The notes below the pieces were generated by a model that was given only the letters and a program-made list of their open reading frames with translations, was not told where the DNA came from and did no database searches. Shown in pieces: positions 3,870 through 20,017 of a stretch of 40,354 bases of DNA. Origin of the DNA: Synergistaceae bacterium (GTDB lineage Bacteria; Synergistota; Synergistia; Synergistales; 79-D21); assembly GCA_029267465.1 (NCBI GenBank), contig JAJUIT010000003.1, positions 1 to 40,354 of the forward strand. The letters are read 5' to 3'. Made by a program: the position numbers and the translations under genes. Positions within the stretch are counted from its first letter, which is position 1, and every line of letters starts with the position of its first letter.

Positions 3870-3898
3870 TTGCGTGCTCTTCCTGTTCAAGGTATAAG
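3870..3898 (+). promoter_or_regulatory. Putative sigma70 promoter for the GntR-headed operon
   Basis: TTGCGT-17 bp-TATAAG, about 30 bp upstream of ATG 3931. Confidence 0.55.
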
Positions 3899-3930
3899 TG
3901 CACTGGGCGGTCCACGCAAGGAGGAATCCC

Positions 3931-4632
3931 ATGGAAACCAAAAAAGTCAAGCCGACCCGGATCTACGAAAAGGTCGTAGAGGAGCTCAAGGATCTGATCT
4001 CTCGGGGTGAGCTGAAGCCCGGAGATCCGCTTCCGCCGGAACGGCAAATGATGGAAGACCTCGGCGTTAGCCGCAGCTCGCTGAGGGAAGCGTTCCGCGT
4101 CCTGGAGCTGATCGGCCTCATCGAGAGCGTTCCCGGAAAGGGGCGTTTCGTCAGGAGGCCCGTGACCGAGACCGGAGAATCCCGCAACATCCCGCTGGAA
4201 GGAGCCGCCGTGCTTGAGCTGATGGAGGCCCGGCGGATCATCGACCCCGCTATCGCCGCGGAAGCCGCGAAGCGTGCCCTGCCCTCCGACCTCACGAAGC
4301 TCCGCCGCATCCTTTCAAGAACGGAGCAGAACCTGGAATCGACGAGCCACCGCGCCCAGAACGACTTCGACTTCCACCTTGCCCTTGCCGAGGCAACCCA
4401 CAACTTTATCTTCGTCAACATCGTCAAGATGACCTTCAATCTCATCATGGCAGCCCACGACCGGATATACAGCCGCCTGACGGACAAGCAGGCGTTCCTC
4501 AAGGAACATACCGGGCTTTACACCGCCATCGTTGACCACGACGCGAAGCTGGCGGGAAAAATCGCGGGAACCCACATCGAGCGGGTCTACCACACCCTGC
4601 AGGAAAGCATCTCCCTGGAAGACCGGGGATGA
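3931..4632 (+). CDS. FadR/GntR family transcriptional regulator
   Basis: AAGGAGG RBS, ATG 3931. wHTH (LKPGDPLPPER..LGVSRSSLREA..LI...GKGRFV) plus FCD domain (DFDFHLALAEATHN). Confidence 0.95.
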   Translation: METKKVKPTRIYEKVVEELKDLISRGELKPGDPLPPERQMMEDLGVSRSSLREAFRVLELIGLIESVPGKGRFVRRPVTETGESRNIPLEGAAVLELMEARRIIDPAIAAEAAKRALPSDLTKLRRILSRTEQNLESTSHRAQNDFDFHLALAEATHNFIFVNIVKMTFNLIMAAHDRIYSRLTDKQAFLKEHTGLYTAIVDHDAKLAGKIAGTHIERVYHTLQESISLEDRG

Positions 4633-4674
4633 TCTGGCGAACCGAACCAAACAATGTCAAGGGAGGGAAGAAAC

Positions 4675-5232
4675 ATGAGAGAGAAAATCGTGGAGCTGCT
4701 GCCGGAAATCAACTGGATCACGGATCCGAAGCTGCGTGAGCAGGTCATCGACACGTACGTGGATGCCCTGAAAACCGGCGGCTGGGAGCCGGAGGACATG
4801 GCCAAAATCCCCTTCACGCTCCTGATCCCCAACTGCCCCGCTTCCTACCTGACCCACACGAGGGGCGTGACGCGCGTCTGCAAGAGAGTCTACGAGGAGT
4901 TCAACGCGCTTTACAAGGACGAGGGCGGCTTCCAGCTGGACCATGACAAGCTCATGGCCGGAGCGATCCTTCACGACGTGGGCAAGCTCGTCGAGTACGA
5001 GAAAGCTCCCGACGGCTCAACGGTCAAATCACAGATGGGCAAGGACCTCCGCCATCCCTTCTCCGGAACCGTGCTGGCCCTTCGCAACGGCATTTCCACC
5101 GAGATCGGCCACATTATCGCCAATCACGCCCACGAGGGTGACGGAACCCTCCGGAGCCCGGAGGGCGTCGTTGTCAACAAGGCCGACTTTGTGAACTTCG
5201 AAACCATCAAGTCGTTTTTGGGCATGAAGTAG
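4675..5232 (+). CDS. HD-domain (HDIG-type) metal-dependent phosphohydrolase
   Basis: GGGAGGG RBS, ATG 4675. Motifs HTRGV, ILHDVGK, RHPFSG, IANH, KAD. Confidence 0.9.
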   Translation: MREKIVELLPEINWITDPKLREQVIDTYVDALKTGGWEPEDMAKIPFTLLIPNCPASYLTHTRGVTRVCKRVYEEFNALYKDEGGFQLDHDKLMAGAILHDVGKLVEYEKAPDGSTVKSQMGKDLRHPFSGTVLALRNGISTEIGHIIANHAHEGDGTLRSPEGVVVNKADFVNFETIKSFLGMK

Positions 5233-5266
5233 GCTGTTCACAAACTTTCACGGGAGGTGCAACGCC

Positions 5267-6544
5267 ATGGGCAAGACGATGATCCAAAAGATCATCCAGA
5301 GGGCTTCCGGCAAGGAAGTCCAGGTAGGCGACCGGGTCTGGTGCAAGATCGACCTTTCCACGGCCCGGGATTTCGGGGGTCCCAACTGCGTCCTGCAGTT
5401 TGACGAAGTGACCGAAAAGGGGAAGGTCTGGGACCCCGACAAGATCGCCTTCACCTTTGACCTTCAGGCCCCAGCTCACGCCGAAAAGGTGGCCAACAAC
5501 CAGAAGATCATCCGGGATTTCGCCAAGCGCCAGGGCATCACGAAGGTGTTCGACGTCAACTGGGGAATCGGGCAGCACGTTCTTCTCGAGAACGGCCTCG
5601 TGAAACCCGGTGACGTCATCCTCGGGACCGACAGCCACATGAACCTGCTGGGCGGGGTCGGGGCATTCGCGACGGGCGTTGGCAACACCGACATCGTGGC
5701 CTCCTGGATCAACGGGACCCTTTGGTTCCGAGTTCCGGAAACGATGAAGATCACGGTCAACGGTTCCTTCGCCAGGGGAGTCTGCATGAGGGATTTCCTC
5801 ACCTTCCTCGTGGGCAAGCTGGGTGCTGACGGCATGTTCTTCAAGGCCGTGGAGTTCTACGGCGAAACCATCGAGAAGAGCTCCCTGGCGGACCGGATCA
5901 CCCTTTGCTCCATGGTCACCGAGATGAGCGGCAAGGTGGGACTCATCATGCCGAACGGGGAAGTCCTGGACTGGCTGGTCAAGCGGGCCGGAACGGAAGT
6001 CCTGGACCGCGTGCAGACGTTGAAGGCCGATCCGGATGCCGTTTACAGCGAAGATCTCCACTTCGACGTGACCGGTCTCGAACCGATGGCCTCCTGTCCC
6101 GATGCGCCGGACAACGTGAAGACGGTGCGTGAAGCCGCGGGAGCCCACATCGACCAGGTTCACATTGGTTCCTGCTCCAACGGCCGGTTCGAGGACATCG
6201 CGGCGGCTTTCGAAGTCTTGAAAGCGGCGAACTTCCAGATTAGCGACAGTGTCCGGACCATCATTACCCCGAGCACCCGGGAAGTCATGAAACAGTGCGC
6301 CGAGGCGGGATTCATCCAGAAGTTCCTCGAGGCGGGAGTCATCTTCACGAACCCGACCTGCAGCCTCTGCACGGCGGAACACTACGGCGTGCTTCCGGGA
6401 GGCGACGTGGGCGTTTCCACCACGAACCGGAACTTCATCGGCAAGGTAGGCAAGGGAAGCCACACCTACCTCGTGAGCCCCATGACGGCGATGGCCTCCG
6501 CGGTGAAGGGCGTTCTCACCGACCCGCGGGACATCCTGAAATAG
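5267..6544 (+). CDS. LeuC/homoaconitase-type Fe-S hydro-lyase large subunit, copy 1 (divergent active site)
   Basis: GTDSH, IGSCSNGR, PTCSLC (three cluster Cys), STTNRNFIG, YLVSP. GGGAGG RBS. Confidence 0.9.
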   Translation: MGKTMIQKIIQRASGKEVQVGDRVWCKIDLSTARDFGGPNCVLQFDEVTEKGKVWDPDKIAFTFDLQAPAHAEKVANNQKIIRDFAKRQGITKVFDVNWGIGQHVLLENGLVKPGDVILGTDSHMNLLGGVGAFATGVGNTDIVASWINGTLWFRVPETMKITVNGSFARGVCMRDFLTFLVGKLGADGMFFKAVEFYGETIEKSSLADRITLCSMVTEMSGKVGLIMPNGEVLDWLVKRAGTEVLDRVQTLKADPDAVYSEDLHFDVTGLEPMASCPDAPDNVKTVREAAGAHIDQVHIGSCSNGRFEDIAAAFEVLKAANFQISDSVRTIITPSTREVMKQCAEAGFIQKFLEAGVIFTNPTCSLCTAEHYGVLPGGDVGVSTTNRNFIGKVGKGSHTYLVSPMTAMASAVKGVLTDPRDILK

Positions 6545-6571
6545 GCGACTGGTTTTAAGGAGGGACAGACC

Positions 6572-7099
6572 ATGGAACAGAACGTCCTGCGCGGAAAGGC
6601 CTGGGTCTTCACCGATGACGTCGACACGGACCTGATTTACCACAACAAGTACCTGGCCGAAACCGACCCCAAAAAGATGGCCCAGTACTCGTTCGAGTAC
6701 TATCCCGGCAAGGAGAAGTTCGCCAAGGAGGCCAAGCCCGGCGACTTCGTCGTGGCGGGCCGCAATTTCGGAACGGGCTCCAGCCGCGAACACGCGGTTT
6801 ACTGCCTCAAGGAACTGGGAATCCCGGTCGTCCTGGCGGAATCCTTCGCCCGGATCTACTACCGCAACGCCATCAACAACGGCTACCCTGTTCTTTTCGT
6901 CAAAGGCCTGAGCGACGCGATCAAGGAAGGCAAAGTCAAGGACGGGGACGAACTGGAAGTGAACATCGCAACCGGCGAGATCAAGGACCTGACCAACGGC
7001 AACACCTTCCACGGAGACGCGGTCACGGACCTTGAAAAGGACATCATGGCCAGCGGCGGCCTGATCGAGTACCTCAAGGCCCAGGCGGCCAAGAAGTAG
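6572..7099 (+). CDS. LeuD-type hydro-lyase small subunit, copy 1
   Basis: DDVDTDLI, AGRNFGTGSSREHA, SFARIYYRNAINNG, GGLI. AAGGAGGG RBS. Confidence 0.93.
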   Translation: MEQNVLRGKAWVFTDDVDTDLIYHNKYLAETDPKKMAQYSFEYYPGKEKFAKEAKPGDFVVAGRNFGTGSSREHAVYCLKELGIPVVLAESFARIYYRNAINNGYPVLFVKGLSDAIKEGKVKDGDELEVNIATGEIKDLTNGNTFHGDAVTDLEKDIMASGGLIEYLKAQAAKK

Positions 7100-7114
7100 G
7101 GAGGGGAAGGACTC

Positions 7115-8371
7115 ATGGGCATGACGTTTGCTGAGAAGGTTCTCGGCAAGGCAGCGGGCTACGCGGTCAAGGCGGGAGACGTCGTCACGGTTGAACCCCA
7201 TTTTTGCATGAGTCACGACAACGCAGCCCCCATCGCCAAGACGTTCAAGAAGATCGGGGTTCCCAAGGTCTGGAAACCGGATCACCTGGTCTTCATCCTG
7301 GATCACGCGATTCCGGCGCCGACGGACGAGCACGCCGTAAACCACAAGGAGATCCGGGAGTTCGTCGAGGAACAGGGCATCCCCCACTTCTTCGACGTCA
7401 CCAGCAAGGGAGGCGTCTGCCACCAGAAGATGTGCGAGGAAGGGTTTGCGCTGCCCGGTCTCATCATCATCGGCAGCGACAGCCACACCTGCACCTACGG
7501 GGCCTACGGGGCCTTCTCGACCGGGATCGGCCGCAGCGAGATGGCCGCGGCCTGGGCCACCGGCAAGATCTGGTTCCGGGTTCCCGAATCCCTCAAGATC
7601 ACCGTGAAGGGCAAGTTCAACAAGGGCGTTTCGGCCAAGGACCTGATCCTGAAGATCATCGGCGACATCAAGGCTGACGGCGCGGACTACATGTCCGTCG
7701 AATTCCACGGCCCGGCGATTTCCGAGATGAGCCTCGCCGAAAGGATGACCCTATGCAACATGGGCATCGAGATGGGCGCGAAGAACGCCGTCTGCCCCCC
7801 GGACGAAAAGGTCCTGGAGGCCATCAGGGGAATCGAGAAGACGAATGAATGGGAAGCGATCTGGGCCGACGAGGACGCCGTATACGCCAAGGAGCTGACT
7901 TACGACCTGGGCGAACTGGTCCCCTGCGTCGCGAAGCCCCACACCGTCGACAATTACGCCTCGATCGACGAAGTGAAGGGGACGAAGATCCACCAGGCGT
8001 TTTTGGGCAGCTGCACCAACGCCCGGATCGAGGACCTGCGCCTGGCCGCGGAAATCCTGAAGGGGAAGGAAGTGGCGGTCCGGACCATCGTCATCCCGGC
8101 CTCCTGGAGGGTCTACCGCCAAGCCCTCGACGAGGGCTTGCTCGAAACCTTCCTTGATGCCGGCTGCGTCATCACGAACCCCGGCTGCGGCCCCTGCATG
8201 GGCAACCACGAGGGCATCCTGGCCCCGGGTGAAGCCTGCATCTCGACTGCCAACCGCAACTTCAAGGGACGCATGGGGAACAAGGACAGCTTCATCTACC
8301 TGGCCAGCCCCATGACCGTCGCCGCCTCCGCCCTGAAGGGCGAGATCGCCGACCCGCGGGAGGTGCTGTAA
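7115..8371 (+). CDS. LeuC/homoaconitase-type Fe-S hydro-lyase large subunit, copy 2 (canonical motifs)
   Basis: MSHDN, LDH, GVCHQ, GSDSHTCTYGA, GSCTNAR, PGCGPCMG, STANRNFKGRMG. Confidence 0.95.
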   Translation: MGMTFAEKVLGKAAGYAVKAGDVVTVEPHFCMSHDNAAPIAKTFKKIGVPKVWKPDHLVFILDHAIPAPTDEHAVNHKEIREFVEEQGIPHFFDVTSKGGVCHQKMCEEGFALPGLIIIGSDSHTCTYGAYGAFSTGIGRSEMAAAWATGKIWFRVPESLKITVKGKFNKGVSAKDLILKIIGDIKADGADYMSVEFHGPAISEMSLAERMTLCNMGIEMGAKNAVCPPDEKVLEAIRGIEKTNEWEAIWADEDAVYAKELTYDLGELVPCVAKPHTVDNYASIDEVKGTKIHQAFLGSCTNARIEDLRLAAEILKGKEVAVRTIVIPASWRVYRQALDEGLLETFLDAGCVITNPGCGPCMGNHEGILAPGEACISTANRNFKGRMGNKDSFIYLASPMTVAASALKGEIADPREVL

Positions 8372-8373
8372 CC

Positions 8374-8874
8374 ATGAAGATCCAGGGGAAGGTCTGGAAA
8401 TACGGGGATGATGTGAACACGGACGTCATCTTCGCCGGGAAGTACACCTACACGATCAAGGATCGCGCCGAGATGGCCAAGGTCGCCCTGGAGGACCTGG
8501 ATCCGGAATTCACGAAAAACGCCCAGGCAGGCGACATCATCGTCGCCGGGAAGAACTGGGGATGCGGCTCCAGCCGCGAGCAGGCCGTCACCTGCCTGAA
8601 GGAGCGGGGCATCGGCGCCATCATCGCCAAGGGCTTCGCCCGGATCTACTACCGCAACTGCCTGAACGAGGGCCTGCCGATCATCGTGTCGCCCGAAGCC
8701 GTCGACGCGATCAACGCCGGCGAAACGGTGGAGATCGATTTCGACGCGAGCGAGATCAGGACCGCCGGCGGGAAGGTCTTCAAGTTCCCGCCCTACCCCG
8801 AGTTCGTCCGGGGCCTCATCGAGGACGGCGGGCTGATCCCCCACGTGAAAAAATCACTGGGAATTTCCAAGTAA
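8374..8874 (+). CDS. LeuD-type hydro-lyase small subunit, copy 2
   Basis: GDDVNTDVI, GKNWGCGSSREQA, FARIYYRN, GGLI. Confidence 0.93.
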   Translation: MKIQGKVWKYGDDVNTDVIFAGKYTYTIKDRAEMAKVALEDLDPEFTKNAQAGDIIVAGKNWGCGSSREQAVTCLKERGIGAIIAKGFARIYYRNCLNEGLPIIVSPEAVDAINAGETVEIDFDASEIRTAGGKVFKFPPYPEFVRGLIEDGGLIPHVKKSLGISK

Positions 8875-8941: not shown

Positions 8942-10192
8942 ATGGATATCCGCAACGTTCTGAGAGTGAAAGAGATCAAGCCCCGCTACAAGGTCGCGTA
9001 CATCCCCGGAGACGACTCCGGTTTCGATGTCATGGAAGGCGCCATGATCGTGCTCCAGGCCATGGACAAGGCGTTCGGCCTGCCGATCGACTGGGTGCGG
9101 GCCGACATGGGCTGGTGCATGTGGGCAAAATCCTGCCAGGAATATCCCGAAGGCGACCCGAGGCGCAACACGGTTCCCGAGGAAACGAAGCAGATCCTCC
9201 GGGAGAGCGACGCCGCCCTCATGGCCGCCATCACTTCGAAGGCCGGCGTGAAAGGTTTCAAGTCCGCCATCCTGCAGATGCGCCAGCTCTTTGACCTTTA
9301 CATCAACCTGCGTCCCGCAAAGTCAATGCCCGGGATCACCTGTCCCCTGAAAGGCGACCCGAAGATCGACATCGTCATGTTCCGCGAGAACACCGAGGAC
9401 CTCTACGCGGCCGTCGAGTTCCGACCGACCCCGAAGGAACACTTCGATATGCATCCCGGCATGGCCCGCTTCAAGGACAAGGAAGAAGTCGCCGTTTCCT
9501 GGAAGGTCTTCTCCAAGGAAGGCTGCGAGCGCATCATCCGCGCCGCCTTCGAGTACGCCAAGGCCACCGGCCGGACCAAGGTCGTCTGCGCCACCAAGGC
9601 CAACGTCATCCGCGCCACGGACGGCATGTTCAAGGAGATCTTCCTGAACATGGCGAAGGAATACCCTGAAATCCAGGCCATCGACGAGAACGCCGACGCC
9701 ACCGCCATGTGGCTCATCAAGAACCCCCAGGATTACCAGGTCATCGTTACGCCGAACGTCTTCGGGGACATCCTCTCCGACGAGGCCAGCCAGCTCGTTG
9801 GCGGTATGGGATTCGCCCCCAGCGGCAACATCGGGAAGGACTTCGCCCTCTTTGAACCCAGCCACGGTTCCGTGCCGAAGTACGCCCACCAGTACAAGAT
9901 CAACCCCTGCGGCCTTCTGAACGCCGCCACCATGATGCTCGAGTACCTCGGCCTCGAAGAGGCCGCCAGGAAGCTCGAGGCCGCAATCAGCGCGGTCCTC
10001 GTTGAAGGCAAGGACCTGACCTACGACGTGTTCCGCGACAACGGCGATCCGGACTGGGAGAAGAAGGCCGTCTCGACGCTCGACATGGCCCGTGCCATCG
10101 CCCGAAAGATCCTTCCGGACTACGACAAGCACGATGCCGAAATCTCCGCGAAAGCGAAGGAGATGTGCGCCTGGGAGCACCTGCCCCAGTAA
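8942..10192 (+). CDS. Isocitrate/homoisocitrate/isopropylmalate (beta-decarboxylating) dehydrogenase family protein
   Basis: MRQLFDLYINLRP, FRENTEDLY, KANV, NVFGDILSDEA, FEPSHGSVPKYA. GGGAGGG RBS. Confidence 0.93.
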   Translation: MDIRNVLRVKEIKPRYKVAYIPGDDSGFDVMEGAMIVLQAMDKAFGLPIDWVRADMGWCMWAKSCQEYPEGDPRRNTVPEETKQILRESDAALMAAITSKAGVKGFKSAILQMRQLFDLYINLRPAKSMPGITCPLKGDPKIDIVMFRENTEDLYAAVEFRPTPKEHFDMHPGMARFKDKEEVAVSWKVFSKEGCERIIRAAFEYAKATGRTKVVCATKANVIRATDGMFKEIFLNMAKEYPEIQAIDENADATAMWLIKNPQDYQVIVTPNVFGDILSDEASQLVGGMGFAPSGNIGKDFALFEPSHGSVPKYAHQYKINPCGLLNAATMMLEYLGLEEAARKLEAAISAVLVEGKDLTYDVFRDNGDPDWEKKAVSTLDMARAIARKILPDYDKHDAEISAKAKEMCAWEHLPQ

Positions 10193-10213
10193 GTGCGGCA
10201 TTAGCGGACCCCG

Positions 10214-10244
10214 AGGGGCCCACTGCGCCGCGGTGGGCCCCTTT
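10214..10244 (+). terminator. Stem-loop with a short U-tail (weak terminator or processing site) before citD
   Basis: AGGGGCCCACTGC / GCGGTGGGCCCCT (one G-U pair) followed by TT. Confidence 0.5.
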
Positions 10245-10281
10245 CGCATCGCAGAACGAAAACGCGAAGGAGGTTGCAACC

Positions 10282-10557
10282 ATGAAAACCGCACAGGCCG
10301 GAACCGTGGAATCCATGGACTGCCTTGTCACGGTTTCCGAAGCCGAGCCGGGTACGGGGCTTGTCCTCAACCTGGCCGGATCAAGCGTGGCCCGGTTCTC
10401 GAAGGCCATGGAAAAGGCTGTCCGCGAAACGCTTGAAGGCCTCGGGATCCGGGACCTGGCCGTCAGCGTGCAGGACAACGGGGCCCTGGACCTCGTTCTG
10501 AAGGCTCGGCTCGAAGCCGCGGTCGCCCGGCTGAAAGAAGGGGGCGAATCGGCATGA
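10282..10557 (+). CDS. citD: Citrate (or citramalate-type) lyase acyl carrier protein, gamma subunit
   Basis: AAGGAGG RBS, ATG 10282. AGTVESMD prosthetic-group Ser motif and DNGALDLVLKARLEAA. 91 aa. Confidence 0.9.
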   Translation: MKTAQAGTVESMDCLVTVSEAEPGTGLVLNLAGSSVARFSKAMEKAVRETLEGLGIRDLAVSVQDNGALDLVLKARLEAAVARLKEGGESA

Positions 10558-11441
10558 GGCTCCGCAGAACGATGCTCTACCTTCCCGGGAACAATCCCAA
10601 CATGCTTCTTCGCGGCCATCTTTTCGCTCCCGACGGGCTGATCCTGGATCTGGAAGACGCGGTCGCGGTCCGGGAGAAGGACGCGGCCCGCGTCCTGGTC
10701 AGGGACGTCCTGAAGCGCGGGGAGTTCGGCTCCTGCGAGGTCACCGTCCGAATCAACGGGCTGGACACCGAATACTGGAGAAAAGACCTGGAGATGCTGG
10801 TCCCGCTGGGCAGGCTGGACGGGGTGCGGGCTCCGAAGGTCGACGACGCCGCCACGGTCCGGCTCCTGGACGAAGCGCTCAGCGAGATCGAAGAGAAAGC
10901 CGGGATCGAGGTCGGCAGGATCAAGATTTTCTGCCTGCTCGAAACGGCGAAGGGGATCTTCAACACCTACGACATCGCCACGGCCTCTCCGCGAGTGGCG
11001 GCGGTCATCCCGGGAGGCGAGGACTTGACCGCAGACCTTCGCACAAACCGTTCTCCCGAGGGAACCGAGCTCGAAGGAATCCGCAGGTCCGTGATCGTGG
11101 CCGCCCGTGCTGCGGGCGTTGACGCCCTGGACACGGTGTTCCCGAGGATCACCGACGACGAGGGGCTGAGGCGGGAAACGGAATTCATCAAGCAGCTCGG
11201 CTTTGACGGAAAGAGCGTGATCCATCCGAACCAGATCCCGATTATCCACGACGTCTTCACTCCCACGGAAAAGGAGATCGAGCGGGCGCAGAAGATCGTG
11301 GCGGCCGCGAAGGAAGCCGCAGAACGAGGGCTGGGAGCCGTCCAGGTGGACGGACGGATGGTGGACGCCCCCGTGGTGAAGCGGGCTCTCTTCACGCTCA
11401 CCCGGGCGGGGCTCCTGGAGGAGGGAACCGAGCATGCCTAA
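10554..11441 (+). CDS. citE: Citrate lyase beta subunit (citryl-ACP lyase; HpcH/HpaI family)
   Basis: RRTMLYLPGNNP, ILDLEDAV, VRIN, LETAKG, GFDGKSVIHPNQI, GRMVDAPVV. ATGA overlap with citD. Confidence 0.92.
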   Translation: MRLRRTMLYLPGNNPNMLLRGHLFAPDGLILDLEDAVAVREKDAARVLVRDVLKRGEFGSCEVTVRINGLDTEYWRKDLEMLVPLGRLDGVRAPKVDDAATVRLLDEALSEIEEKAGIEVGRIKIFCLLETAKGIFNTYDIATASPRVAAVIPGGEDLTADLRTNRSPEGTELEGIRRSVIVAARAAGVDALDTVFPRITDDEGLRRETEFIKQLGFDGKSVIHPNQIPIIHDVFTPTEKEIERAQKIVAAAKEAAERGLGAVQVDGRMVDAPVVKRALFTLTRAGLLEEGTEHA

Positions 11442-12984
11442 AAACATCCTTGGACGCGAGATTCCAGAATTCATCGAAGGGTACGGGGAAACCCAACCCT
11501 TCATGGGAGCAAGTGCGCGAAAACCCGAGGGGAACAGGGCCGGCCCGAAACTTCGTGCAACTTTTGGCGACTGCACCAGCAAGGTCATCCCCGACCTGAA
11601 GGCCGCCATCGCCGCTTCCGGCCTGAAGAGCGGCATGACCGTGTCGTTCCACCACCACCTCCGTAACGGCGACTACGTGGTCAACGCCGTCATCGATGCC
11701 TGCGCCGAAATGGGCATCCGGGACCTGACCCTCTTCCCGACCGCCCTCTTCGGGGTTCACAAAAAATTGATCGAACACATCAAGAGCGGGGTCATCCGGC
11801 GGATCATGGGATCGGTCAATGGCCCGATCGGACAGATGGTTTCGGAGGGCGGGATGGACGTCCCCGTGGTCCTTCGCAGTCATGGAGGGCGTCCCAGGGC
11901 TGTCGTCTCGGGGGATGTGAAGATCGACGTGGCCTTCATTGCCGCACCCACCGCCGATGCCTACGGGAACATCTGCGGCTCCCAGGGGAAATCGGCCTGC
12001 GGCTCCCTTGGCTACGCCTTCACGGACGCGATGTACGCCGACTGCGTCGTGGCCGTGACGGACAACCTGGTCCCCTTCCCTGCCGCCCCGGTTTCCATCC
12101 CGCAATACTACGTCGATATCGTTGCCGTCATGGACAGCATCGGCGACCCGGCGGGCATCGTTTCCGGCACGACGAGAATCACCCGGGACCCCCTGCGCCT
12201 CCTGATTTCCAAGTACGCTTCCCGCCTGATCGAGGCCAGCCCCTACTTTAAGGACGGGATCAGCTTCCAGACCGGTGCCGGCGGCATTTCCCTTGCGGTC
12301 ACCGCATTCATGAAGGAAGCCATGAAAAAACGGGGAGTGCGGGGCAGCTTCGGTCTGGGCGGCATCACGGGGTACTTCGTGGACCTGCTCAAGGAAGGCT
12401 ACGTCGAGAAACTCATGGACGTCCAGTCCTTTGACCTCGAGGCCGTGAAATCCATCGCCGAGAACCCCAACCACATCGAGATTTCGGCTGACTGGTACGC
12501 TAACCCCTGGAACGCCGGAACGGCGGTCAACATGCTCGACGTGGTCATCCTGGGCGCCACGGAGATGGACCGGGACTTCAACGTCAACGTCAACACCGAG
12601 GCCGACGGCGCGCTGCTGCACGGGATCGGCGGACACCAGGACACCGCAGCGGGGGCCAAGCTCACCATCATCAGCCAGCCCCTGCTCCGGGGACGCATCC
12701 CCTGCGTGGTGGACAAGGTCTATTCGGTCACGACGCCCGGGGAAGTTGTGGATGCCCTGGTCACCGAGTACGGCGTCACGATCAACCCGCGGAGGCAGGA
12801 CCTCATCGACGCCTGCAAGGAGGCCGGGAACGTTCCCCTGGTCTCCATGGACGAACTCATCGCCCGGGCCCACGAGATGTGCGGACCCGCGGACCCCGTG
12901 GAAACGGAGGACCGCATCATCGGCGTCATCGAGTGGCGGGACGGAACGGTCATCGACGTCGTCCGGCAGTTGAAGAAAAAGTAA
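11434..12984 (+). CDS. citF: Citrate lyase alpha subunit (citrate:acetyl-ACP transferase)
   Basis: SFHHHLRNGD, RSHGGRPRA, CGSLGYA, SFQTGAGG, DVQSFD, GGHQDTA, EWRDGTVIDVV. Confidence 0.95.
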   Translation: MPKNILGREIPEFIEGYGETQPFMGASARKPEGNRAGPKLRATFGDCTSKVIPDLKAAIAASGLKSGMTVSFHHHLRNGDYVVNAVIDACAEMGIRDLTLFPTALFGVHKKLIEHIKSGVIRRIMGSVNGPIGQMVSEGGMDVPVVLRSHGGRPRAVVSGDVKIDVAFIAAPTADAYGNICGSQGKSACGSLGYAFTDAMYADCVVAVTDNLVPFPAAPVSIPQYYVDIVAVMDSIGDPAGIVSGTTRITRDPLRLLISKYASRLIEASPYFKDGISFQTGAGGISLAVTAFMKEAMKKRGVRGSFGLGGITGYFVDLLKEGYVEKLMDVQSFDLEAVKSIAENPNHIEISADWYANPWNAGTAVNMLDVVILGATEMDRDFNVNVNTEADGALLHGIGGHQDTAAGAKLTIISQPLLRGRIPCVVDKVYSVTTPGEVVDALVTEYGVTINPRRQDLIDACKEAGNVPLVSMDELIARAHEMCGPADPVETEDRIIGVIEWRDGTVIDVVRQLKKK

Positions 12985-14368: not shown

Positions 14369-14415
14369 CCGATCCCCCCAGGTCCAGCCGCGGAAAGTTT
14401 CGACCGGTGCGGATA

Positions 14416-14445
14416 TTGTACCCTTTTCCCGGGGAAGGCTATACT
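14416..14445 (+). promoter_or_regulatory. Putative promoter for the subtilase-T2SS operon, in the short divergent region shared with the lgt-like gene
   Basis: TTGTAC-18 bp-TATACT. The same DNA gives TACAAT on the - strand (14420-14415) as a possible -10 for lgt. Confidence 0.45.
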
Positions 14446-14487
14446 GAAACTTGGCAGGGAGTTCAGCTCGCCCCGGGAGGGATCGAT

Positions 14488-16302
14488 TTGCGACACTGTT
14501 CCATGAAAAGATTAACGGCATTGACGGTGGCGGTCGTTTGCCTTGTCTTCACCCTGGCGGCGTGGACCGGCTTTTCGAAAAGCGGAGATGCCGGGGAAAG
14601 ACTTCCCCGGGGAGCCTCGTTCGTCCCGGACGAAATCCTCGTCCAGCTCAAACCCGGCTACCGGCTGGAAACCGTGCTTTCAGCCCTCCCCATGCAGCTT
14701 GTCGCGGAGGAACCCGGGAAACCCGCACCTCGCGGCCTTGCGAGGCTGAAGATCCCGCGGGGAGAGACGGTCATGAACGCGGTATCGCTTCTGAAAGGGA
14801 AAGAAGGCGTCCTCTTCGCCCAGCCCAATTACGTCTACCGGGCCGCCGTTTTCCCGGACGACCCCAGCTACCCCAACCAATGGGCCCTTCCGAAAATCGG
14901 GGCCCCGACCGCCTGGGACCTGGCCACCGGCAGTTCGGACGTCCTCGTCGCCGTCCTCGACACGGGGGTTGACCTCAGCCACCCGGACCTTGCGGGCAAC
15001 CTCTGGACAAACCCGGATGAAATTCCCGGAGACGGCCTGGACAACGACGGCAACGGGTACGTCGACGACGTCCACGGCTGGAACTCGTCCGCCAATTCCG
15101 CGGATGTCCAGGACGATTTCGGGCACGGCACCCACGTCGCCGGAATCATCGGCGCCGTGGGCAACAATGGAACGGGCGTCGCCGGCGTGAACTGGAAAGT
15201 CGGGATCATCGCCGTCAAGGCAAACAAGGGGGACAGCTTCACCACGCTGGATCTCGCCAGGGGAACCGGCTACGTCACGGCCCTCAGGACGGGCAAGGGC
15301 CTGCCGATCGTGGCCGTCAACGCTTCCCTGGGAGCCGCCGTGTCCGAGGATCCCCTGCTGAACCAGGCCATCATAAATGCCGGCGAGGCAGGCATCCTTT
15401 TCGTCGCGGCTGCCGGCAACGACAACAGCGACAACGACCGGACGCCCTTCTACCCCTCCAGCCTGTTCAGGCCGAACGTGCTGTCGGTCGCCGCCACGGA
15501 CGAGAACGATGCCCTCGCGATCTTCAGCCTCCTCACTAACGAGGGCTCGAATTACGGACGACGGACCGTTCACCTTGGAGCCCCCGGCAAGTACATCGAG
15601 AGCACCTACTACTTCATAAGTACAAGCGCCGATACCCCGAGCGGTTATGAGAGACTAAGCGGGACCTCGATGGCGGCACCCCACGTGACCGGCATCCTGG
15701 CCCTCCTGAAGGCCCAGGATCCGAGCCGGGACTGGATCGCCCTGAAAAACAGGGTGCTTTCTACGGGAACCCCCTTGTCCGGCCTATCCTCGAAAACCAT
15801 AACGGGACGGCGCCTCCTGGCGGCCGGGGACGGTGCCTTAGGCGCCCTGACCGGAAGCGGCCAGACGGTGAAGTCCCGCCTTCGGCCCATCCCCGACAGC
15901 CTGGACCTGGAACAGGGAACGTCGCTGGACCTTGCCGCCCTGAACATCTCCGGGGAAGAATCCCTGGGGGACCTCCCCGTTTCGATCACCCGAAACGGAG
16001 CTTCCTACGGGACCCTCACCCTGAGGGACAACGGGACCGGGTTCGACCAGGCAGCGGGAGACGGGATCGCTTCCGCGACCTGGACGGTCCCCTCGTCGGC
16101 GAACAGCACCTACGTCTTCGCCTTCCCGGACGGGAACCTGACGGTGACGGTCGATCTCGCTGAAGAACCCCCCGCCCCGTCCGGCGGAGGCGGAGGGGGC
16201 GGCTGCAGCGCGGCCGGCGGCCTGGGACCGTTTTTCTTTCTCTGCATCCCAGCCGCACTCTTCGCCCTGAAAAGGAAGAAACCCGCGCCGCCTGACCGAT
16301 GA
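14488..16302 (+). CDS. S8 subtilisin-like serine protease with signal peptide, propeptide, C-terminal beta domain and Gly-rich/Cys C-terminal sorting tag (SYNERG-CTERM-like)
   Basis: GGGAGGG RBS before TTG 14488 (alternative ATG 14503). Triad VLDTG, HGTHVAG, GTSMAAPH; oxyanion AAAGN. LRDNG..DQAAGDG motif. Ends SGGGGGGGCSAAGGLGPFFFLCIPAALFALKRKK. Confidence 0.93.
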   Translation: MRHCSMKRLTALTVAVVCLVFTLAAWTGFSKSGDAGERLPRGASFVPDEILVQLKPGYRLETVLSALPMQLVAEEPGKPAPRGLARLKIPRGETVMNAVSLLKGKEGVLFAQPNYVYRAAVFPDDPSYPNQWALPKIGAPTAWDLATGSSDVLVAVLDTGVDLSHPDLAGNLWTNPDEIPGDGLDNDGNGYVDDVHGWNSSANSADVQDDFGHGTHVAGIIGAVGNNGTGVAGVNWKVGIIAVKANKGDSFTTLDLARGTGYVTALRTGKGLPIVAVNASLGAAVSEDPLLNQAIINAGEAGILFVAAAGNDNSDNDRTPFYPSSLFRPNVLSVAATDENDALAIFSLLTNEGSNYGRRTVHLGAPGKYIESTYYFISTSADTPSGYERLSGTSMAAPHVTGILALLKAQDPSRDWIALKNRVLSTGTPLSGLSSKTITGRRLLAAGDGALGALTGSGQTVKSRLRPIPDSLDLEQGTSLDLAALNISGEESLGDLPVSITRNGASYGTLTLRDNGTGFDQAAGDGIASATWTVPSSANSTYVFAFPDGNLTVTVDLAEEPPAPSGGGGGGGCSAAGGLGPFFFLCIPAALFALKRKKPAPPDR

Positions 16303-16913
16303 GCCGCGTGGGACAAAATCCCGGAAAGGGTTTTACCCTGGTCGAGGTTCTCGTGGCCATCGGTTTGATGGGCCTGGTGTCGGCGCTCGCCCTCGGGCCT
16401 TTGGCTGCTTTGACCGTAAGGCTGGAAGCGCTTCGGGCGCAGTATGCCGAAGAAGCGGCCCTTTCGTCGGCGCTTTCAGGCATCGCCGCGGACTGCCGGC
16501 AAATCCTCCCTCAAGGGGGAGATGCCCCCTTCCGGACGATCCGGAGAGAGGTCCTCGGGGGGGGCAGGAAAGATGTTCTCCTGGTCTGGACAGGGGCCCC
16601 CCTTTCCAGAAACCAGCCAGCGGCTACCGAGGTTTTTTCGATCGCCGACACCGGCCCCTTCCGGGAGCCGATCCAGCCGGGGCTGTACCGCTGGACCCTG
16701 GCGGGGACCCTCCCCGCGGACGTCAGCCCGGAGCGCCTGGACCCCAGGAAGGCGACCCTCCTGGTGAAAGGGGCGGATCGCTTTTCCGTCTCGGTGTTTG
16801 ACGGCAAGGAATGGGTCGAAGATTATTCCGGACCGGTTCCCCCGGGAGTGGCGCTTGGAATCTCAAGAAGGGGGGTCGAGGCCTCCCATGTGGACACGGT
16901 GCTTTCCTTCTAG
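16299..16913 (+). CDS. gspJ: Type II secretion minor pseudopilin, GspJ-like
   Basis: Prepilin motif KGFTLVEVLVA. 204 aa. C-terminal W...W....P.GV pattern. Directly upstream of gspK. Confidence 0.75.
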   Translation: MSRVGQNPGKGFTLVEVLVAIGLMGLVSALALGPLAALTVRLEALRAQYAEEAALSSALSGIAADCRQILPQGGDAPFRTIRREVLGGGRKDVLLVWTGAPLSRNQPAATEVFSIADTGPFREPIQPGLYRWTLAGTLPADVSPERLDPRKATLLVKGADRFSVSVFDGKEWVEDYSGPVPPGVALGISRRGVEASHVDTVLSF

Positions 16914-17817
16914 CGGGAGGCGGCAGGGCTTCGTCCTCGTCGCCGTCCTGATGGCTGTGGCTGTGCTCGTGACGGGAGCGCTCGCCTTTGCCTGGTTTTC
17001 CAGGATGGAGGTCCGCAAGGCGGAAGCTCTCGCCTTCTCGCTCGAGGCCCGAAGCCTGGCTGAAACCGCCGTATGGGAAATGAAACGGGGGCTTGTCCTG
17101 GATTCGAACGGCTCGGATTCCCTCCTGGAACCCTGGTTCGGGACCTGGCCCCTTCCGGTGGAGGGAAACATCGCCGTTCTCGTGCGCCTGGTTCCGAAAA
17201 ACGACGCGTTGCCGGTGAATTCGCTTTTTCTCCCGGACGGGATCACCCTGAGGCGCGAGTTGGAGATCCCCTGGCAAAGGCTCTGGGAGGAGCTGAAAAG
17301 ACCGGAGCTCGCCGAAGACCTGCTGGATTTCCTTGACAGGGACACGACCCCGAGAGCCGGGGGCCGCGAAGATCCACCCTTTCTCAACCGGCCCCCTTCT
17401 TCCCTGGAGGAGTTGCGCCTTTTCCCGGGCATTGACGAAACGCTCTACAGCGGGAAGAATGAAAAAATCCCGAAAGGGTTGGAGGATTTCCTGACCGTCC
17501 ACAGCGATGGGCGGATTAACGTCAACGTCGCGGCTCCCGGAGTCCTGGAGCTCCTCGACCCGACCCTCACCCCGGCCGTGGTCCGGGAGATCCTCGAAAG
17601 GAGAAACGGGGACCCCCTGTCCGGATGGAACGACCTCTCCGCTCTTCCGGGATTCCCCGCGGGGCTGGAACCGCGGCTTTCGGGTCTTCTGTCTTTCGCC
17701 AGCTCGCATTTTCTGGCACAGATCGAGGTTCGAAAGGGAAACCTCGTTCGACGTTTCGAGGCCGTGCTTCTCAAAAAGGAAAACCGCTGCACGGTCATCG
17801 CCTGGAAGGAGATGTAG
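16888..17817 (+). CDS. gspK: Type II secretion minor pseudopilin GspK
   Basis: RQGFVLVAVL (no Glu5), LLDFLDRD, SLEELRLFPG, GRINVNVA, SSHF. Start taken at ATG 16888. Confidence 0.88.
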   Translation: MWTRCFPSSGRRQGFVLVAVLMAVAVLVTGALAFAWFSRMEVRKAEALAFSLEARSLAETAVWEMKRGLVLDSNGSDSLLEPWFGTWPLPVEGNIAVLVRLVPKNDALPVNSLFLPDGITLRRELEIPWQRLWEELKRPELAEDLLDFLDRDTTPRAGGREDPPFLNRPPSSLEELRLFPGIDETLYSGKNEKIPKGLEDFLTVHSDGRINVNVAAPGVLELLDPTLTPAVVREILERRNGDPLSGWNDLSALPGFPAGLEPRLSGLLSFASSHFLAQIEVRKGNLVRRFEAVLLKKENRCTVIAWKEM

Positions 17818-17823
17818 CGGGGC

Positions 17824-18906
17824 ATGAAAGCCGAATTGACGGGTGGAAAACTCCCCTGCCGTTTCGTCACCCCGGAAGAAATGTCGTTCCATCCCTTTTC
17901 CTTCCCCTTCAGCGATCCGGCCCGCATCCGCCAGGCCCTTTTGCTGCAGCTCGCTTCCCTGATGGGGGAGGATTCGAAGCGGTTGCACCTGTGCCCGGTG
18001 GTTTTCCAGAGAGAAAAGGAAAGGACCCGGGGAGTTGCTCTGGTCTATCCGGATGACCTGGACAAGGGGCTGGAAAAAGGCGGAGAAACGCGCCTTTTTC
18101 CGGCTCCCCTAGCTTTCGGTGCGGCCCTCGACGGTTCAGGCCTCGGTGTTTGGGCCGACGAAAGCCACGTGTCGGCCGTCCTCTGGCGGGAGGGGATCCC
18201 AATCCTTTACCGCTGCGTTTCGCGGGCCGAGGCCGAACCCCAAGAGGTGATCGAATGGGTTCGGTCCTCTTCGGGAGAATCGGATTTCCCCGTCTTCCTC
18301 TTGGACAGCCGCGTCCTTCCCGATGCGGCGGAGCGCCTGGAGGCAGAGGCCCGGCGGACCTGGGCCGCCTTCCCTGCCCTCGCCCCCCTGGACCTTTCCC
18401 CCCGGCGCATGGAATCAGCCCTGCGGATCGAGCACCTTTCGGCCAACCTCAAACCCGCCCTTTCCGCCGGCCTGGTCCTGGGAATTCTCTTTTTGGCCGC
18501 TTCCGCCCTTTCCGCCCTTTCCGCCCAAAACCGTCTCGAAGCCTATGAAACGGCCTCCATCCGGCTTTACCGCGAGGTCTTCGACCCCACCGGCCCCGTT
18601 CGCGACCCCCTGAGCCAGGCTAAAGCCCGCCTGGCCGCCGTTTCCGGTACGGAGGAAAACGACGGGCTGATCCAGGTTTTCGCCATGCTGGGACGGGCCT
18701 GCCAGAAATCCGGTGAGGGGATCGTTCTCGATACGCTGCGATACTCCCAGAGACAGACGGAATTGACCGGCAAGGGACCATCCGTGGAGGCCGTCCGGGC
18801 CTTCCAACAGGCCCTGGAAGCCGGGGAAACTTCGCTCGAGGATCTCCAGCAGCTTCCCGCGGGACAGTACCGCTTCAAAATCATCGTCAGGGGGAAAAAC
18901 CAGTGA
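17824..18906 (+). CDS. gspL: Type II secretion inner-membrane platform protein GspL
   Basis: Position after gspK. FPFSDPARIRQAL cytoplasmic domain, one TM, LYREVF...VRDPLSQAK, PilN-like periplasmic end. Confidence 0.75.
   Translation: MKAELTGGKLPCRFVTPEEMSFHPFSFPFSDPARIRQALLLQLASLMGEDSKRLHLCPVVFQREKERTRGVALVYPDDLDKGLEKGGETRLFPAPLAFGAALDGSGLGVWADESHVSAVLWREGIPILYRCVSRAEAEPQEVIEWVRSSSGESDFPVFLLDSRVLPDAAERLEAEARRTWAAFPALAPLDLSPRRMESALRIEHLSANLKPALSAGLVLGILFLAASALSALSAQNRLEAYETASIRLYREVFDPTGPVRDPLSQAKARLAAVSGTEENDGLIQVFAMLGRACQKSGEGIVLDTLRYSQRQTELTGKGPSVEAVRAFQQALEAGETSLEDLQQLPAGQYRFKIIVRGKNQ
18501..18526 (+). repeat. In-frame 9-bp tandem repeat (TTCCGCCCT, about 3 copies) in gspL
   Basis: Seen directly; encodes SALSALSA at the end of the TM segment. 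Confidence 0.6.
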
Positions 18907-19418
18907 AGACGCCCTGGAAGGAGCTCATCGCCCGGCTTGGTCCATCCGCTTCCGGGGACGAGGCCATCCAGCGGAGGACGCGGATCTTGGCCATGGCGGT
19001 CCTGGTCTTTTTCCTCTGGGGAACCGGTTTGCTCCTCCTTGACCGTGCCCGTGAAACCGAAAACCGCATCGCCCTGGCGGCGGCCCGATTCTCCAGCCTG
19101 GCGAAAACCTCCCAGGCCTACCGGGCCCTTGTGCCCTCCCGCGCCGCGGGGAAAGCCATCAGCAACCCGGCGGATCCTCTTGCCGCTGCCTCGGAAGCGA
19201 TCGACCGGCTGCAGGTCAAGGATCGCCTGAAAAGCCTTTCAAGCTCCAGCCGAGGGGTTTCCATCGAACTGGAGGGACTCGGACAAAAGGAAACCCTTTC
19301 TTTGATCCGAGAGTTGAAGAAAGCCCGGCTGGCCGTTACCGCCGCCGAGATTCGCGCCCTGCCGCTTGGCGGGAAGAGGAGCCTTTCCGTGACCCTGCTT
19401 TTGGGAGGACAGCCATGA
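18903..19418 (+). CDS. gspM: Type II secretion protein GspM-like
   Basis: 171 aa, single N-terminal TM after RRTR, ferredoxin-like end (VSIELEGL...). Synteny after gspL, GTGA overlap. Confidence 0.65.
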   Translation: MKTPWKELIARLGPSASGDEAIQRRTRILAMAVLVFFLWGTGLLLLDRARETENRIALAAARFSSLAKTSQAYRALVPSRAAGKAISNPADPLAAASEAIDRLQVKDRLKSLSSSSRGVSIELEGLGQKETLSLIRELKKARLAVTAAEIRALPLGGKRSLSVTLLLGGQP

Positions 19419-20017
19419 ACCGCCCTCGGATCTCGGCCATAGGAACCACACTCGCCCTGCTCGCGGCTTTTCTCCTGGGAGCTTTCTGGGCTTTTCCCTG
19501 GGACCGGCTGGCGGAAACGATTCTTGAAGAAGCCTCGCGAAAAGCGACAGCCGCAGGATTTCGTCTGGACCAGGGAACCGTGCGGACGAACTCCCGCTTT
19601 CCCCTTGAGGTTGAGATCCGGGAGGTTTCGCTGGCGAACGTCCTGGGCTCGGTTCGGGCTCCTTCGGTCAAGGTCCGGCTGAAGCCTCTCGTCTTTCTTA
19701 CCCGGATGGCAGCGGGCCTGAAACTCGAAAGCCAGGCAGCCCGGCTCGAGCTTCCAGGGAGCCGACCCCTGGCCCTGACAGGGATCAAGGCTGATTTGGA
19801 TTTCTCCCGTTCGGAAGCCCGGATTCGCACCCTTTCTGTCGGTGGAGACCTGGGCCTTTCAGGAACGCTGACCTGGTCTTTCAACAGAAAACGGCTCTCC
19901 TTCACGGACCTGTCGATCCGGGCCCCCGAGAGCCTGGACCCCGGGTTGAACCTTCTCCGCTTCTCCATCGGCCTCCGGCCCGAAGGAAGCGGTCAGTGGA
20001 GGCTGAGAGTTCCATGA
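19415..20017 (+). CDS. gspN: Type II secretion protein GspN-like
   Basis: N-terminal TM ending FPWDRL, beta-rich periplasmic part (GGDLGLSGTL). Synteny after gspM, ATGA overlap. Confidence 0.6.
   Translation: MNRPRISAIGTTLALLAAFLLGAFWAFPWDRLAETILEEASRKATAAGFRLDQGTVRTNSRFPLEVEIREVSLANVLGSVRAPSVKVRLKPLVFLTRMAAGLKLESQAARLELPGSRPLALTGIKADLDFSRSEARIRTLSVGGDLGLSGTLTWSFNRKRLSFTDLSIRAPESLDPGLNLLRFSIGLRPEGSGQWRLRVP

Follow-up and report, generated by a model that had tools for sequence, protein, structure and literature searches.

A conserved aconitase-like enzyme with a substituted active site

We found that a 40,354-bp stretch of DNA from a Synergistaceae bacterium (GTDB lineage Bacteria; Synergistota; Synergistia; Synergistales; 79-D21; GenBank assembly GCA_029267465.1, contig JAJUIT010000003.1, positions 1 to 40,354 of the forward strand; hereafter the window) encodes what is, by its sequence, an uncharacterised but conserved variant within the aconitase superfamily, whose role and substrate we infer. 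The variant, which we call copy 1, is the large subunit of the first of two consecutive hydro-lyase pairs, each consisting of a large and a small subunit gene. Both pairs lie in a run of ten genes arranged head to tail on the + strand, from a regulator gene (starting at position 3898) to a CitF-type lyase gene (ending at 12984; Table 1). The residue pattern of copy 1, its conservation, the clades in the family tree and the linkage of the genes are direct observations. The reading of them that we favour, at slightly less than an even chance, is that copy 1 and its small subunit would be a single-step hydro-lyase on the lyase side of a pathway (citrate/cis-aconitate), with copy 2 acting on the isocitrate side.

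The large subunits of copy 1 and copy 2 are 39% identical. Copy 2 has the motifs MSHDN, LDHAIP, GVCHQ and PGCGPCMG, where copy 1 has TARDF (residues 32–36), FDLQAP (64–69), GIGQH (100–104) and PTCSLCTA (363–370). Copy 1 also has GTDSH (120–124), Cys303, Cys365, Cys368 and NRNF (387–390), and its small subunit has GSSRE. The original prediction, which was made from the window's sequence alone, was built on these motifs, and all those that it quoted are present in the translated open reading frames (ORFs), including the three cluster cysteines, DSH, NRNF and GSSRE that it described as retained. It had counted two conserved histidines as absent from copy 1. We found that three are changed (to Arg34, Leu66 and Gln103), and that GIGQH is not a simple loss, because a histidine is still there one place on (His104). 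The isopropylmalate isomerase (IPMI) of M. jannaschii (PDB 4KP1/4NQY) reads VHD, FDHQ and GVCHQ at the three changed positions, with histidine in every case.

When copy 2 is aligned to pig aconitase (1ACO), its His34 falls on Gln72, His103 on His147, Asn215 on Asn258 and Arg386 on Arg452. The copy 1 equivalents are Arg34, Gln103, Ser215 and Lys393, of which the last two are further changes that the original prediction did not include; His104 is at the next position, in the place of aconitase Gln148. In the pairwise HMMER alignment, the DH motif of copy 2 and aconitase Asp100-His101 are offset by four residues. We take the histidine of this motif to be the equivalent of His101, and so Leu66 to be its counterpart in copy 1, because the column is histidine in 94% of the 170 non-clade rows of the alignment described below and because of the assignment of this motif in the literature. 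The GSC, C..C and DSH motifs were mapped onto aconitase from the 1ACO alignment; Cys365, Cys368 and Asp122-Ser123-His124 are invariant in 120 of 120 close sequences, and Cys303 was read from GSCSNG in the window protein. According to the available text of PMC8184944, aconitase uses Ser642 as the base and His101 to protonate the hydroxyl; the network around the free iron is made up of Asp165, His167 and His147.

By its profile matches, copy 1 belongs to the two-subunit IPMI/homoaconitase (HACN) type of the aconitase superfamily (PF00330 and PF00694; NF001614, TIGR01343). It scores 273 bits on PF00330 (cut-off 28.7) and 451 bits on NF001614 (cut-off 385), and its small subunit scores 67.6 bits on PF00694 (cut-off 22.8). 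Both hydro-lyase pairs are of the archaeal IPMI/homoaconitase type, and only generic subfamily models are passed. Copy 1 does not reach the equivalog cut-offs for LeuC (TIGR02083, 364 versus 611 bits; TIGR00170, 195 versus 560) or homoaconitase (NF040615 HacA_Meth, 354 versus 550; TIGR00139, 199 versus 530), or those of the aconitate hydratase models NF005558 PRK07229 (239 versus 612) and TIGR01342 (214 versus 719), and on the remaining AcnA, AcnB and mitochondrial models it scores lower still. Copy 2 likewise reaches no LeuC, HacA or aconitase equivalog. As for residues, the Ser642/Arg644 pair of the swivel domain is represented by GSSR in all 135 small domains associated with the copy 1 clade, whereas His101 and His147 are represented in copy 1 by Leu66 and Gln103, and Asn258 and Arg452 by Ser215 and Lys393.

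The substitutions define a widely distributed clade

A search of 5.8 billion proteins gave 5994 matches to copy 1. The best 120 of these (119 plus the query) share at least 72% identity with copy 1; those with names come from Synergistota and Clostridia. All 120 have Arg34, Phe36, Asp65, Leu66, Gly102, Gln103, His104, Ser215, Cys365, Cys368, Lys393 and the D-S-H triad, so the residue pattern of copy 1 is conserved far beyond chance. Among more distant relatives, taken as representatives of clusters at 50% identity, the motifs read xARDFGG, FD-[Cys/Leu/Tyr] and GIG-[Thr/Ser/Gln]-His. Some of these representatives are fused forms, with the large and small subunits joined in one protein of about 600–640 residues.

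In a FastTree phylogeny (251 rows, 419 columns, SH-like support, midpoint root), all the rows with the pattern form one clade of 81 rows with a support of 100, drawn from many bacterial and archaeal phyla. Within it, Gly102 and His104 occur in all 81 rows, Arg34, Ser215 and Thr337 in 80 each, and Lys393 in 77. Positions 66 and 103 are Cys/Leu/Tyr and Thr/Ser/Gln, and no row has histidine at either. Outside the clade these two positions are histidine in 94% and 93% of rows, and positions 215 and 393 are Asn in 88% and Arg in 97%. The small subunit, or the C-terminal domain of fused forms, also has a signature of its own in the clade, DTD[LM]I[YF]HN[KR]YL, with His24 and Asn25 in 134 of 135 sequences; in the small domains of the partner proteins described below (n = 64) this place is occupied by Pro or Ala and then Gly, with histidine in none. 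The His24-Asn25 stretch just precedes the loop that reportedly sets substrate specificity in the small subunits of M. jannaschii.

The fused form is very common: in contigs from one genome per species, a relative is encoded in at least 595 of at least 606 pattern-matched stretches, from Bacteroidales, Cloacimonadota, Anaerolineae, Planctomycetota, Acidobacteriota, Heimdallarchaeota, Bathyarchaeia and Thermoplasmata. At two loci of Bacteroidota and Cloacimonadota type (L137:7001-10602 and L122:7001-10875), a clade member and its canonical partner are both fused, at about 590–610 residues, and stand in tandem; the same tandem pair is made up of four separate genes in Synergistota. Fused clade members also fail the aconitate hydratase model (307–308 versus 612 bits). 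The sister group of the clade (P0126) is represented by two loci, where the neighbours are an HD protein, an M17 peptidase, a fragment of the citrate synthase family and a small subunit; we drew nothing from so small a set.

The proposal that ARD/DLQ/GQH might mark a conserved clade is thus confirmed by the tree, and decay private to this genome, the outcome that had been set against it, is contradicted. Since the substitutions are kept in 120 of 120 close matches and in about 80 of the 81 clade rows, we rejected genome-private change as an explanation. That copy 1 is a decaying or non-catalytic paralogue is scarcely credible: it has lost residues that are near-universal in the family, but its reading frame is intact at 70–98% identity in 39 Synergistota genomes, its replacement residues are an invariant set, the small subunit has changed along with it, and the synteny is conserved across phyla.

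Gene neighborhoods of copy 1 and its relatives

To describe gene context we used a close set, made up of the window and 80 loci that have a copy 1 type (81 sources; many of the loci are cut by contig ends), and a distant set of 80 loci around fused clade members, in which ORF calling missed the target gene in about 12 so that all counts are lower bounds. In the close set, the neighbors of the copy 1 type are its small subunit (76 of 81 sources), an HD-domain protein upstream (62), a copy 2 type (50), a GntR regulator (46), a CitE-type gene (45) and a dehydrogenase (44). They fall into two layouts. Synergistota have the full operon, and copy 2 types and the dehydrogenase are confined to this layout. 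The second layout occurs in Clostridia (Lachnospiraceae, Oscillospiraceae and Acidaminobacter) and Pyramidobacter, and has copy 1 and its small subunit without the dehydrogenase. The clostridial clusters have no copy 2, and the Pyramidobacter locus (L024) has only a distant LeuCD-like pair (46 and 41% identity). Clusters of the second layout carry CitC together with CitDEF proteins about 43% identical to those of the window, and TctA/TctC or MatC/CitMHS transporters; a PrpF-family gene is present at 15 loci, a divergent PrpD-family gene at 13, and an amidohydrolase-2 lactonase-like gene at 13. Copy 1 is the sole PF00330 gene in one genome with this layout (1.4 Mb) and one of two in another.

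Four of these clusters, from gut and rumen Clostridia (L072:4433-13815, L058:1689-12694, L052 and L056), combine the copy 1 pair and CitC/CitDEF with a PrpF-like isomerase, a very divergent PrpD-family protein, AroM, a MatC/CitMHS carrier and an amidohydrolase-2 protein that is nearest to sulfomuconolactone hydrolase (below cut-off), in what is apparently a catabolic pathway.

In the distant set the recurring gene order is dehydrogenase, a 183-residue protein, clade member, canonical hydro-lyase. We found the dehydrogenase at no fewer than 28 of the 80 loci, an HD-like protein at about 35 or more, a canonical second hydro-lyase at about 27 or more, CitDE/CitF at 13 or more, and a SucCD-like ligase at 8 or more; a gene of the citrate synthase family is also found near some. 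The 183-residue protein is 42% identical to the HD protein of the window (E = 2e-45), across phyla. For this HD protein (in the window and, for example, L153:6450-7001) we found no informative solved relative. At four loci from Anaerolineae and Planctomycetales (L093, L094, L109 and L154), the genes immediately before the HD protein and the clade member, on their upstream side, encode SucC/SucD-like ligases, which may be an alternative to CitDEF of the citryl-CoA-synthetase type. In a comparison with named families, only generic or sub-threshold matches were obtained for the HD protein, for the partner and the wider clade, and for the neighbors resembling PrpF, PrpD and amidohydrolases, and a literature search, whose coverage excluded subscription journals, found no description of the clade or the operon.

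Copy 2 is the dedicated partner of copy 1

The canonical hydro-lyases that neighbor fused clade members belong with copy 2: 26 of 29 such rows are in one clade with it (34 rows, support 93), and two of the three others are mislabelled clade members with long N-terminal frames. Where the locus has no such neighbor, an orthologue of the partner was found elsewhere in all five genomes tested, at 64–67% identity. Among 121 Synergistota genomes, which are related to one another so that counts from them are not independent, a copy 1 type is present in 45 and a copy 2 type in 41. The two occur together in 40 genomes, almost always adjacent; copy 1 occurs alone in 5 and copy 2 alone in 1, and 75 genomes lack both. 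CitF homologs are present in 92 of the 121, including 51 of the 76 without copy 1, and being so common they were dropped as a specific co-occurrence signal.

The source genome is 93.6% complete and contains a separate leuA-leuC-leuB cluster on another contig (C73), on which ground we rejected copy 2 as the leucine enzyme. With this cluster and a partner clade of its own, copy 2 cannot be regarded as a housekeeping paralogue. In the source genome, we found no aconitase beyond the operon and LeuC, no citrate synthase (PF00285), no PrpF and no glutamate mutase E. Glutamate mutase E was also missing from all five other near-complete genomes with copy 1, by a Pfam model that gave no true positives in 14 control genomes and is of unchecked sensitivity. 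On this basis, and with that limit, we rejected copy 1 as the mesaconase of the methylaspartate pathway.

The dehydrogenase and the lyase

Among solved proteins, those closest to the dehydrogenase of the window are isocitrate and homoisocitrate dehydrogenases (217 and 201 bits), not isopropylmalate dehydrogenases. The window protein reaches no equivalog cut-off, and its best NCBIfam match, to the homoisocitrate dehydrogenase of methanogens, is also below cut-off. At the substrate loop it has Ser-Ala-Ile-Leu, where isocitrate dehydrogenases have Ser-x-Asn-Val and the Thermus homoisocitrate dehydrogenase has Gly-Ala-Ile-Arg. This Ile recurs throughout 46 Synergistota sequences, and other phyla keep it too, in the form S-P-I-V. 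In isocitrate dehydrogenase, the Asn of Ser-x-Asn binds the gamma-carboxylate, and roles are ascribed to Ser113, Asn115 and Arg85. The protein belongs to a Ser-x-Ile-[Leu/Val] subfamily that extends from Synergistota to loci of Bacteroidales type (for example L113:4478-5674), and this pattern is unlike those of isocitrate, homoisocitrate and isopropylmalate dehydrogenases. In the lyase, CitF exceeds the citrate-lyase equivalog cut-off and CitE falls below the citE cut-off, in both layouts.

A possible division of the aconitase reaction between two enzymes

We propose that the isomerisation carried out by aconitase may be divided here between two enzymes. Copy 1 and its small subunit would form an active [4Fe-4S] hydro-lyase, from an old branch of the superfamily, that interconverts in one step a tertiary alcohol made or cleaved by the CitDEF-type lyase (most likely citrate) and an alkene (most likely cis-aconitate). 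The second pair, copy 2 and its small subunit, has canonical residues and would interconvert the alkene and a secondary alcohol of isocitrate type for the adjacent dehydrogenase. In copy 1 the cluster ligands would be Cys303, Cys365 and Cys368, Asp122-Ser123-His124 would hold water on the free iron, and Ser70 of the small subunit would be the base. The proton relay of His101 and His147 may be replaced by the new His104 and/or by His24-Asn25 of the small subunit, and Arg34 and Lys393 may reshape carboxylate binding. The direction in vivo is possibly from 2-oxoglutarate through citrate to acetate and oxaloacetate, in amino-acid fermenters. Extracts of glutamate-grown T. acidaminovorans contained citrate lyase and lacked beta-methylaspartase and hydroxyglutarate dehydrogenase (PMC3035242), and glutamate mutase E was not seen in the five near-complete genomes with copy 1, by the Pfam model above.

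The step order (lyase, copy 1 type, copy 2 type, dehydrogenase) is suggested by the phyletic pattern. Because copy 2 is absent where the dehydrogenase is absent, while copy 1 and the lyase stay, copy 1 would act on the tertiary alcohol of the lyase; by the same pattern copy 2 would act on the secondary alcohol of the dehydrogenase, with the alkene shared between them. Citrate is the most likely tertiary alcohol because CitF exceeds the citrate-lyase cut-off, because varied citrate-related enzymes adjoin clade members in other phyla, and because the clostridial clusters hold tricarboxylate-type transporters and a PrpF-family gene. By analogy, the clostridial gene set matches a route from trans-aconitate through cis-aconitate and citrate to acetate and oxaloacetate (as outlined in the available parts of PMC3035267 and PMC11495376), and PrpF-family aconitate isomerases are documented in the latter. 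The original prediction offered three options for copy 1, namely an isomerase, one half-reaction only, or a different substrate; one half-reaction fits the gene neighborhoods best. Its statement that the base and cluster are kept and the acid lost overlooked the invariant His104 (81 of 81) and the His-Asn of the small subunit (134 of 135), either of which could be the replacement acid.

A more far-reaching proposal is possible but, in our view, doubtful. On this view the clade would represent a new mechanistic class of iron-sulfur hydro-lyase, with His104 and/or the small-subunit His-Asn taking over as general acid. Together with the canonical partner, the S-x-I dehydrogenase, the HD protein and a citrate-cleaving enzyme, it would make up a widespread, undescribed route from 2-oxoglutarate through isocitrate and citrate to acetate and oxaloacetate–2-oxoacid chain elongation run backwards–and so an additional way of fermenting glutamate, present in Synergistota, Cloacimonadota, Bacteroidales, Anaerolineae and several archaeal lineages.

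Several observations weigh against citrate, or against the split itself. The dehydrogenase has its conserved Ile exactly where isocitrate dehydrogenase has the substrate-binding Asn, in the 46 Synergistota sequences and (as S-P-I-V) elsewhere, and falls under every equivalog cut-off tested. A 13C study by Plugge and colleagues in 2001 reportedly concluded that the methylaspartate route is 'most likely' in T. acidaminovorans, which conflicts with the route proposed here. Two module-bearing genomes that are Bacteroidota-like also carry an aconitase of 756–770 residues and a second Iso_dh gene, so a citrate-handling module would be redundant in them. At 11 distant loci the dehydrogenase and the HD-like protein accompany a clade member without an adjoining canonical partner, CitF homologs are frequent without copy 1 (the 51 of 76 genomes above), and the PrpD-family and amidohydrolase-2 lactonase-like proteins of 13 clostridial clusters are left unexplained. 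In extracts of T. acidaminovorans, according to the available text of PMC3035242, citrate lyase was present and isocitrate dehydrogenase was not detectable.

Because of this evidence we keep a sizeable, though unlikely, rival in which the split architecture is the same and the substrates are another 2-alkylmalate series: citramalate with citraconate/mesaconate, leading to 3-methylmalate and 2-oxobutyrate, or homocitrate, or 2-methylcitrate, with CitDEF as a citramalate-type lyase. The Ser-x-Ile-Leu/Val loop of the dehydrogenase in place of Ser-x-Asn, its sub-cut-off best match to a homoisocitrate dehydrogenase, the low CitE scores in both layouts, the standard aconitase and extra Iso_dh gene of module genomes, and the lack of isocitrate dehydrogenase activity in T. 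acidaminovorans extracts (PMC3035242, as available) all favor it. They are set against the CitF score, which passes the citrate-lyase equivalog cut-off in both layouts, the SucCD-like ligases and citrate-synthase-family gene adjoining clade members elsewhere, the tripartite tricarboxylate and CitMHS-type transporters of clostridial clusters, the closeness of the dehydrogenase to isocitrate/homoisocitrate rather than isopropylmalate enzymes, and the source genome, in which no glutamate mutase was found that could feed a mesaconate route. One relative of PrpF is a methylitaconate isomerase, which in nicotinate fermentation acts alongside a hydratase of the aconitase family; we count this in favor of other substrates.

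There is a slim chance that copy 1 is instead a complete aconitase (citrate to isocitrate) with alternative catalytic residues and that copy 2 catalyzes another reaction. This would suit the 11 distant loci without an adjoining second hydro-lyase, and a source genome with no other aconitase candidate; it sits poorly with the partner orthologs found elsewhere in five of five tested genomes, with the 40 of 45 copy 1 Synergistota genomes that also have copy 2, and with the absence of copy 2 types exactly where the dehydrogenase is absent. The option of a cis/trans (or allylic) isomerase of aconitate-type acids with no hydro-lyase activity, which the original prediction had also raised, is very unlikely. 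Loss of the acid-type histidines with retention of the cluster ligands and the serine base speaks for it, but the D-S-H triad that binds water is invariant, as is the N-R pair, and the related clusters that would need an isomerase already carry a separate PrpF-family gene (15 loci), a family with documented aconitate isomerases (in the available text of PMC11495376).

Gene content of the operon and its surroundings

The coordinates and distinguishing features of the ten genes are given in Table 1. The CitD-type gene probably starts downstream of 10165. An 833-residue open frame on the – strand (5207–7708) runs antisense over copy 1 and its small subunit. Other long ORFs that overlap the operon genes on either strand had no Pfam matches (the 833-residue frame lay outside that scan), and we take the long overlapping and antisense ORFs to be by-products of the 60% G+C content, not genes. 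Metatranscriptome contigs from four libraries, at least 92% alike, span parts of the operon including copy 1; we did not count them as evidence of transcription, since such libraries can hold DNA and the contigs carry no expression level.

Table 1. Genes of the copy 1 operon in the window.
Gene product	Position	Strand	Features
GntR/FCD-family regulator, head of operon	3898..4632	+	Pfam GntR and FCD domains; upstream in 46 of 81 related sources
HD-domain metalloprotein, conserved companion of copy 1	4654..5232	+	Pfam HD, 43.5 bits
Copy 1 large subunit ('ARD-type')	5267..6544	+	425 aa; R34, L66, Q103, H104, S215, K393; C303/C365/C368, D122-S123-H124 and N387-R388 retained
Copy 1 small subunit	6572..7099	+	GSSR (S70, S71, R72); clade-specific DTDLIYHN loop (H24, N25)
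Copy 2 large subunit, 'partner' clade	7115..8371	+	Canonical residues H34, D63-H64, C102-H103, N215, R386
Copy 2 small subunit	8374..8874	+	GSSR; loop FAGKYTYT, without His
Beta-decarboxylating dehydrogenase, Iso_dh family	8942..10192	+	Ser-Ala-Ile at the Ser-x-Asn site of isocitrate dehydrogenase
CitD-type acyl carrier subunit	10165..10557	+	TIGR01608, 75.3 bits (cut-off 63.5), residues 41–125 of a 130-aa frame
CitE-type lyase beta subunit	10554..11441	+	Pfam HpcH_HpaI; TIGR01588 citE, 325 bits, under the cut-off of 443
CitF-type lyase alpha subunit	11434..12984	+	Pfam CitF; TIGR01584 citF, 657 bits (cut-off 501)

Downstream of the operon, the window contains a subtilase with a fervidolysin-like N-terminal prodomain (14407–16302), which fits a proteolytic, amino-acid-fermenting lifestyle. 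It is followed by a run of small genes (16299–20895), with a prepilin-type N-terminal methylation motif and a GspL-like domain, that looks to belong to a type II secretion or type IV pilus-like system; for several of the ORFs in this run, Pfam gave no match.

Significance and comparison with known systems

His101 and His147 are treated as near-universal in aconitase, IPMI and homoaconitase in the available text of PMC8184944, so the existence of a large clade without them suggests that the chemistry is feasible with another set of residues. Copy 1 and copy 2 make a defined pair for asking why some members of the superfamily do only a half-reaction, a question that PMC3556520, in its available part, leaves open for homoaconitase. 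If the pathway that we favor is true, it would give a function to genes annotated as 'isopropylmalate dehydratase' or 'homoaconitate hydratase family' in many anaerobes, and would explain acetate formation from glutamate in Synergistota in which glutamate mutase E was not seen (none of five near-complete genomes, by the Pfam model above).

The best solved relative of both copy 1 subunits is the M. jannaschii isopropylmalate/citramalate isomerase (4KP1/4NQY, small subunit 3VBA; 368 and 158 bits). Both enzymes have two subunits, three cluster cysteines, DSH, NRNF and GSSR. The M. jannaschii enzyme differs in having histidine at the three changed positions, Asn in TNMAIE and Arg in NRNFRGR, and its small-subunit loop, ILPARYLVY, lacks the His-Asn pair of copy 1; on the LEU2 equivalog, whose cut-off is 611 bits, copy 1 reaches 364.

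The closest parallel to the proposed division of labor is the conversion of homocitrate to homoisocitrate in fungi and Thermus, where, in the available text of PMC3556520, homoaconitase carries out only the homoaconitate/homoisocitrate step and aconitase does the other, so that two enzymes of the family serve the tertiary- and secondary-alcohol halves. There, however, an ordinary aconitase, canonical in its residues, handles the tertiary alcohol, whereas copy 1 belongs to a separate clade with substituted ones; in the copy 1 system a single operon encodes both enzymes, and a lyase takes the place of the synthase as pathway partner. Single (de)hydrations are also known from AcnX (the cis-3-hydroxy-L-proline and mevalonate-5-phosphate dehydratases) and AcnD, and AcnX has no homolog of His101 (a non-homologous Lys takes over its role) and Cys at the His147 position (PMC8184944, available text). 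Copy 1 is of the IPMI type (PF00330/PF00694), not AcnX, scores 47 bits on the AcnD model against a cut-off of 1420, and has different replacement residues.

On the lyase side, Acidaminococcus fermentans ferments trans-aconitate by way of citrate, citrate lyase, oxaloacetate and pyruvate, with a set consisting of an aconitate isomerase, a hydratase that needs only to form citrate, citrate lyase and tricarboxylate uptake; the available text of PMC3035267, the source for this route, does not establish the hydratase gene. The clostridial copy 1 clusters have the same set. Finally, the window operon resembles citCDEFXG operons in having CitD, CitE and CitF together, with CitF over its equivalog cut-off, but it has no CitC, CitX or CitG and its CitE is below cut-off; what it carries instead are the two hydro-lyase pairs, together with a dehydrogenase and an HD protein.

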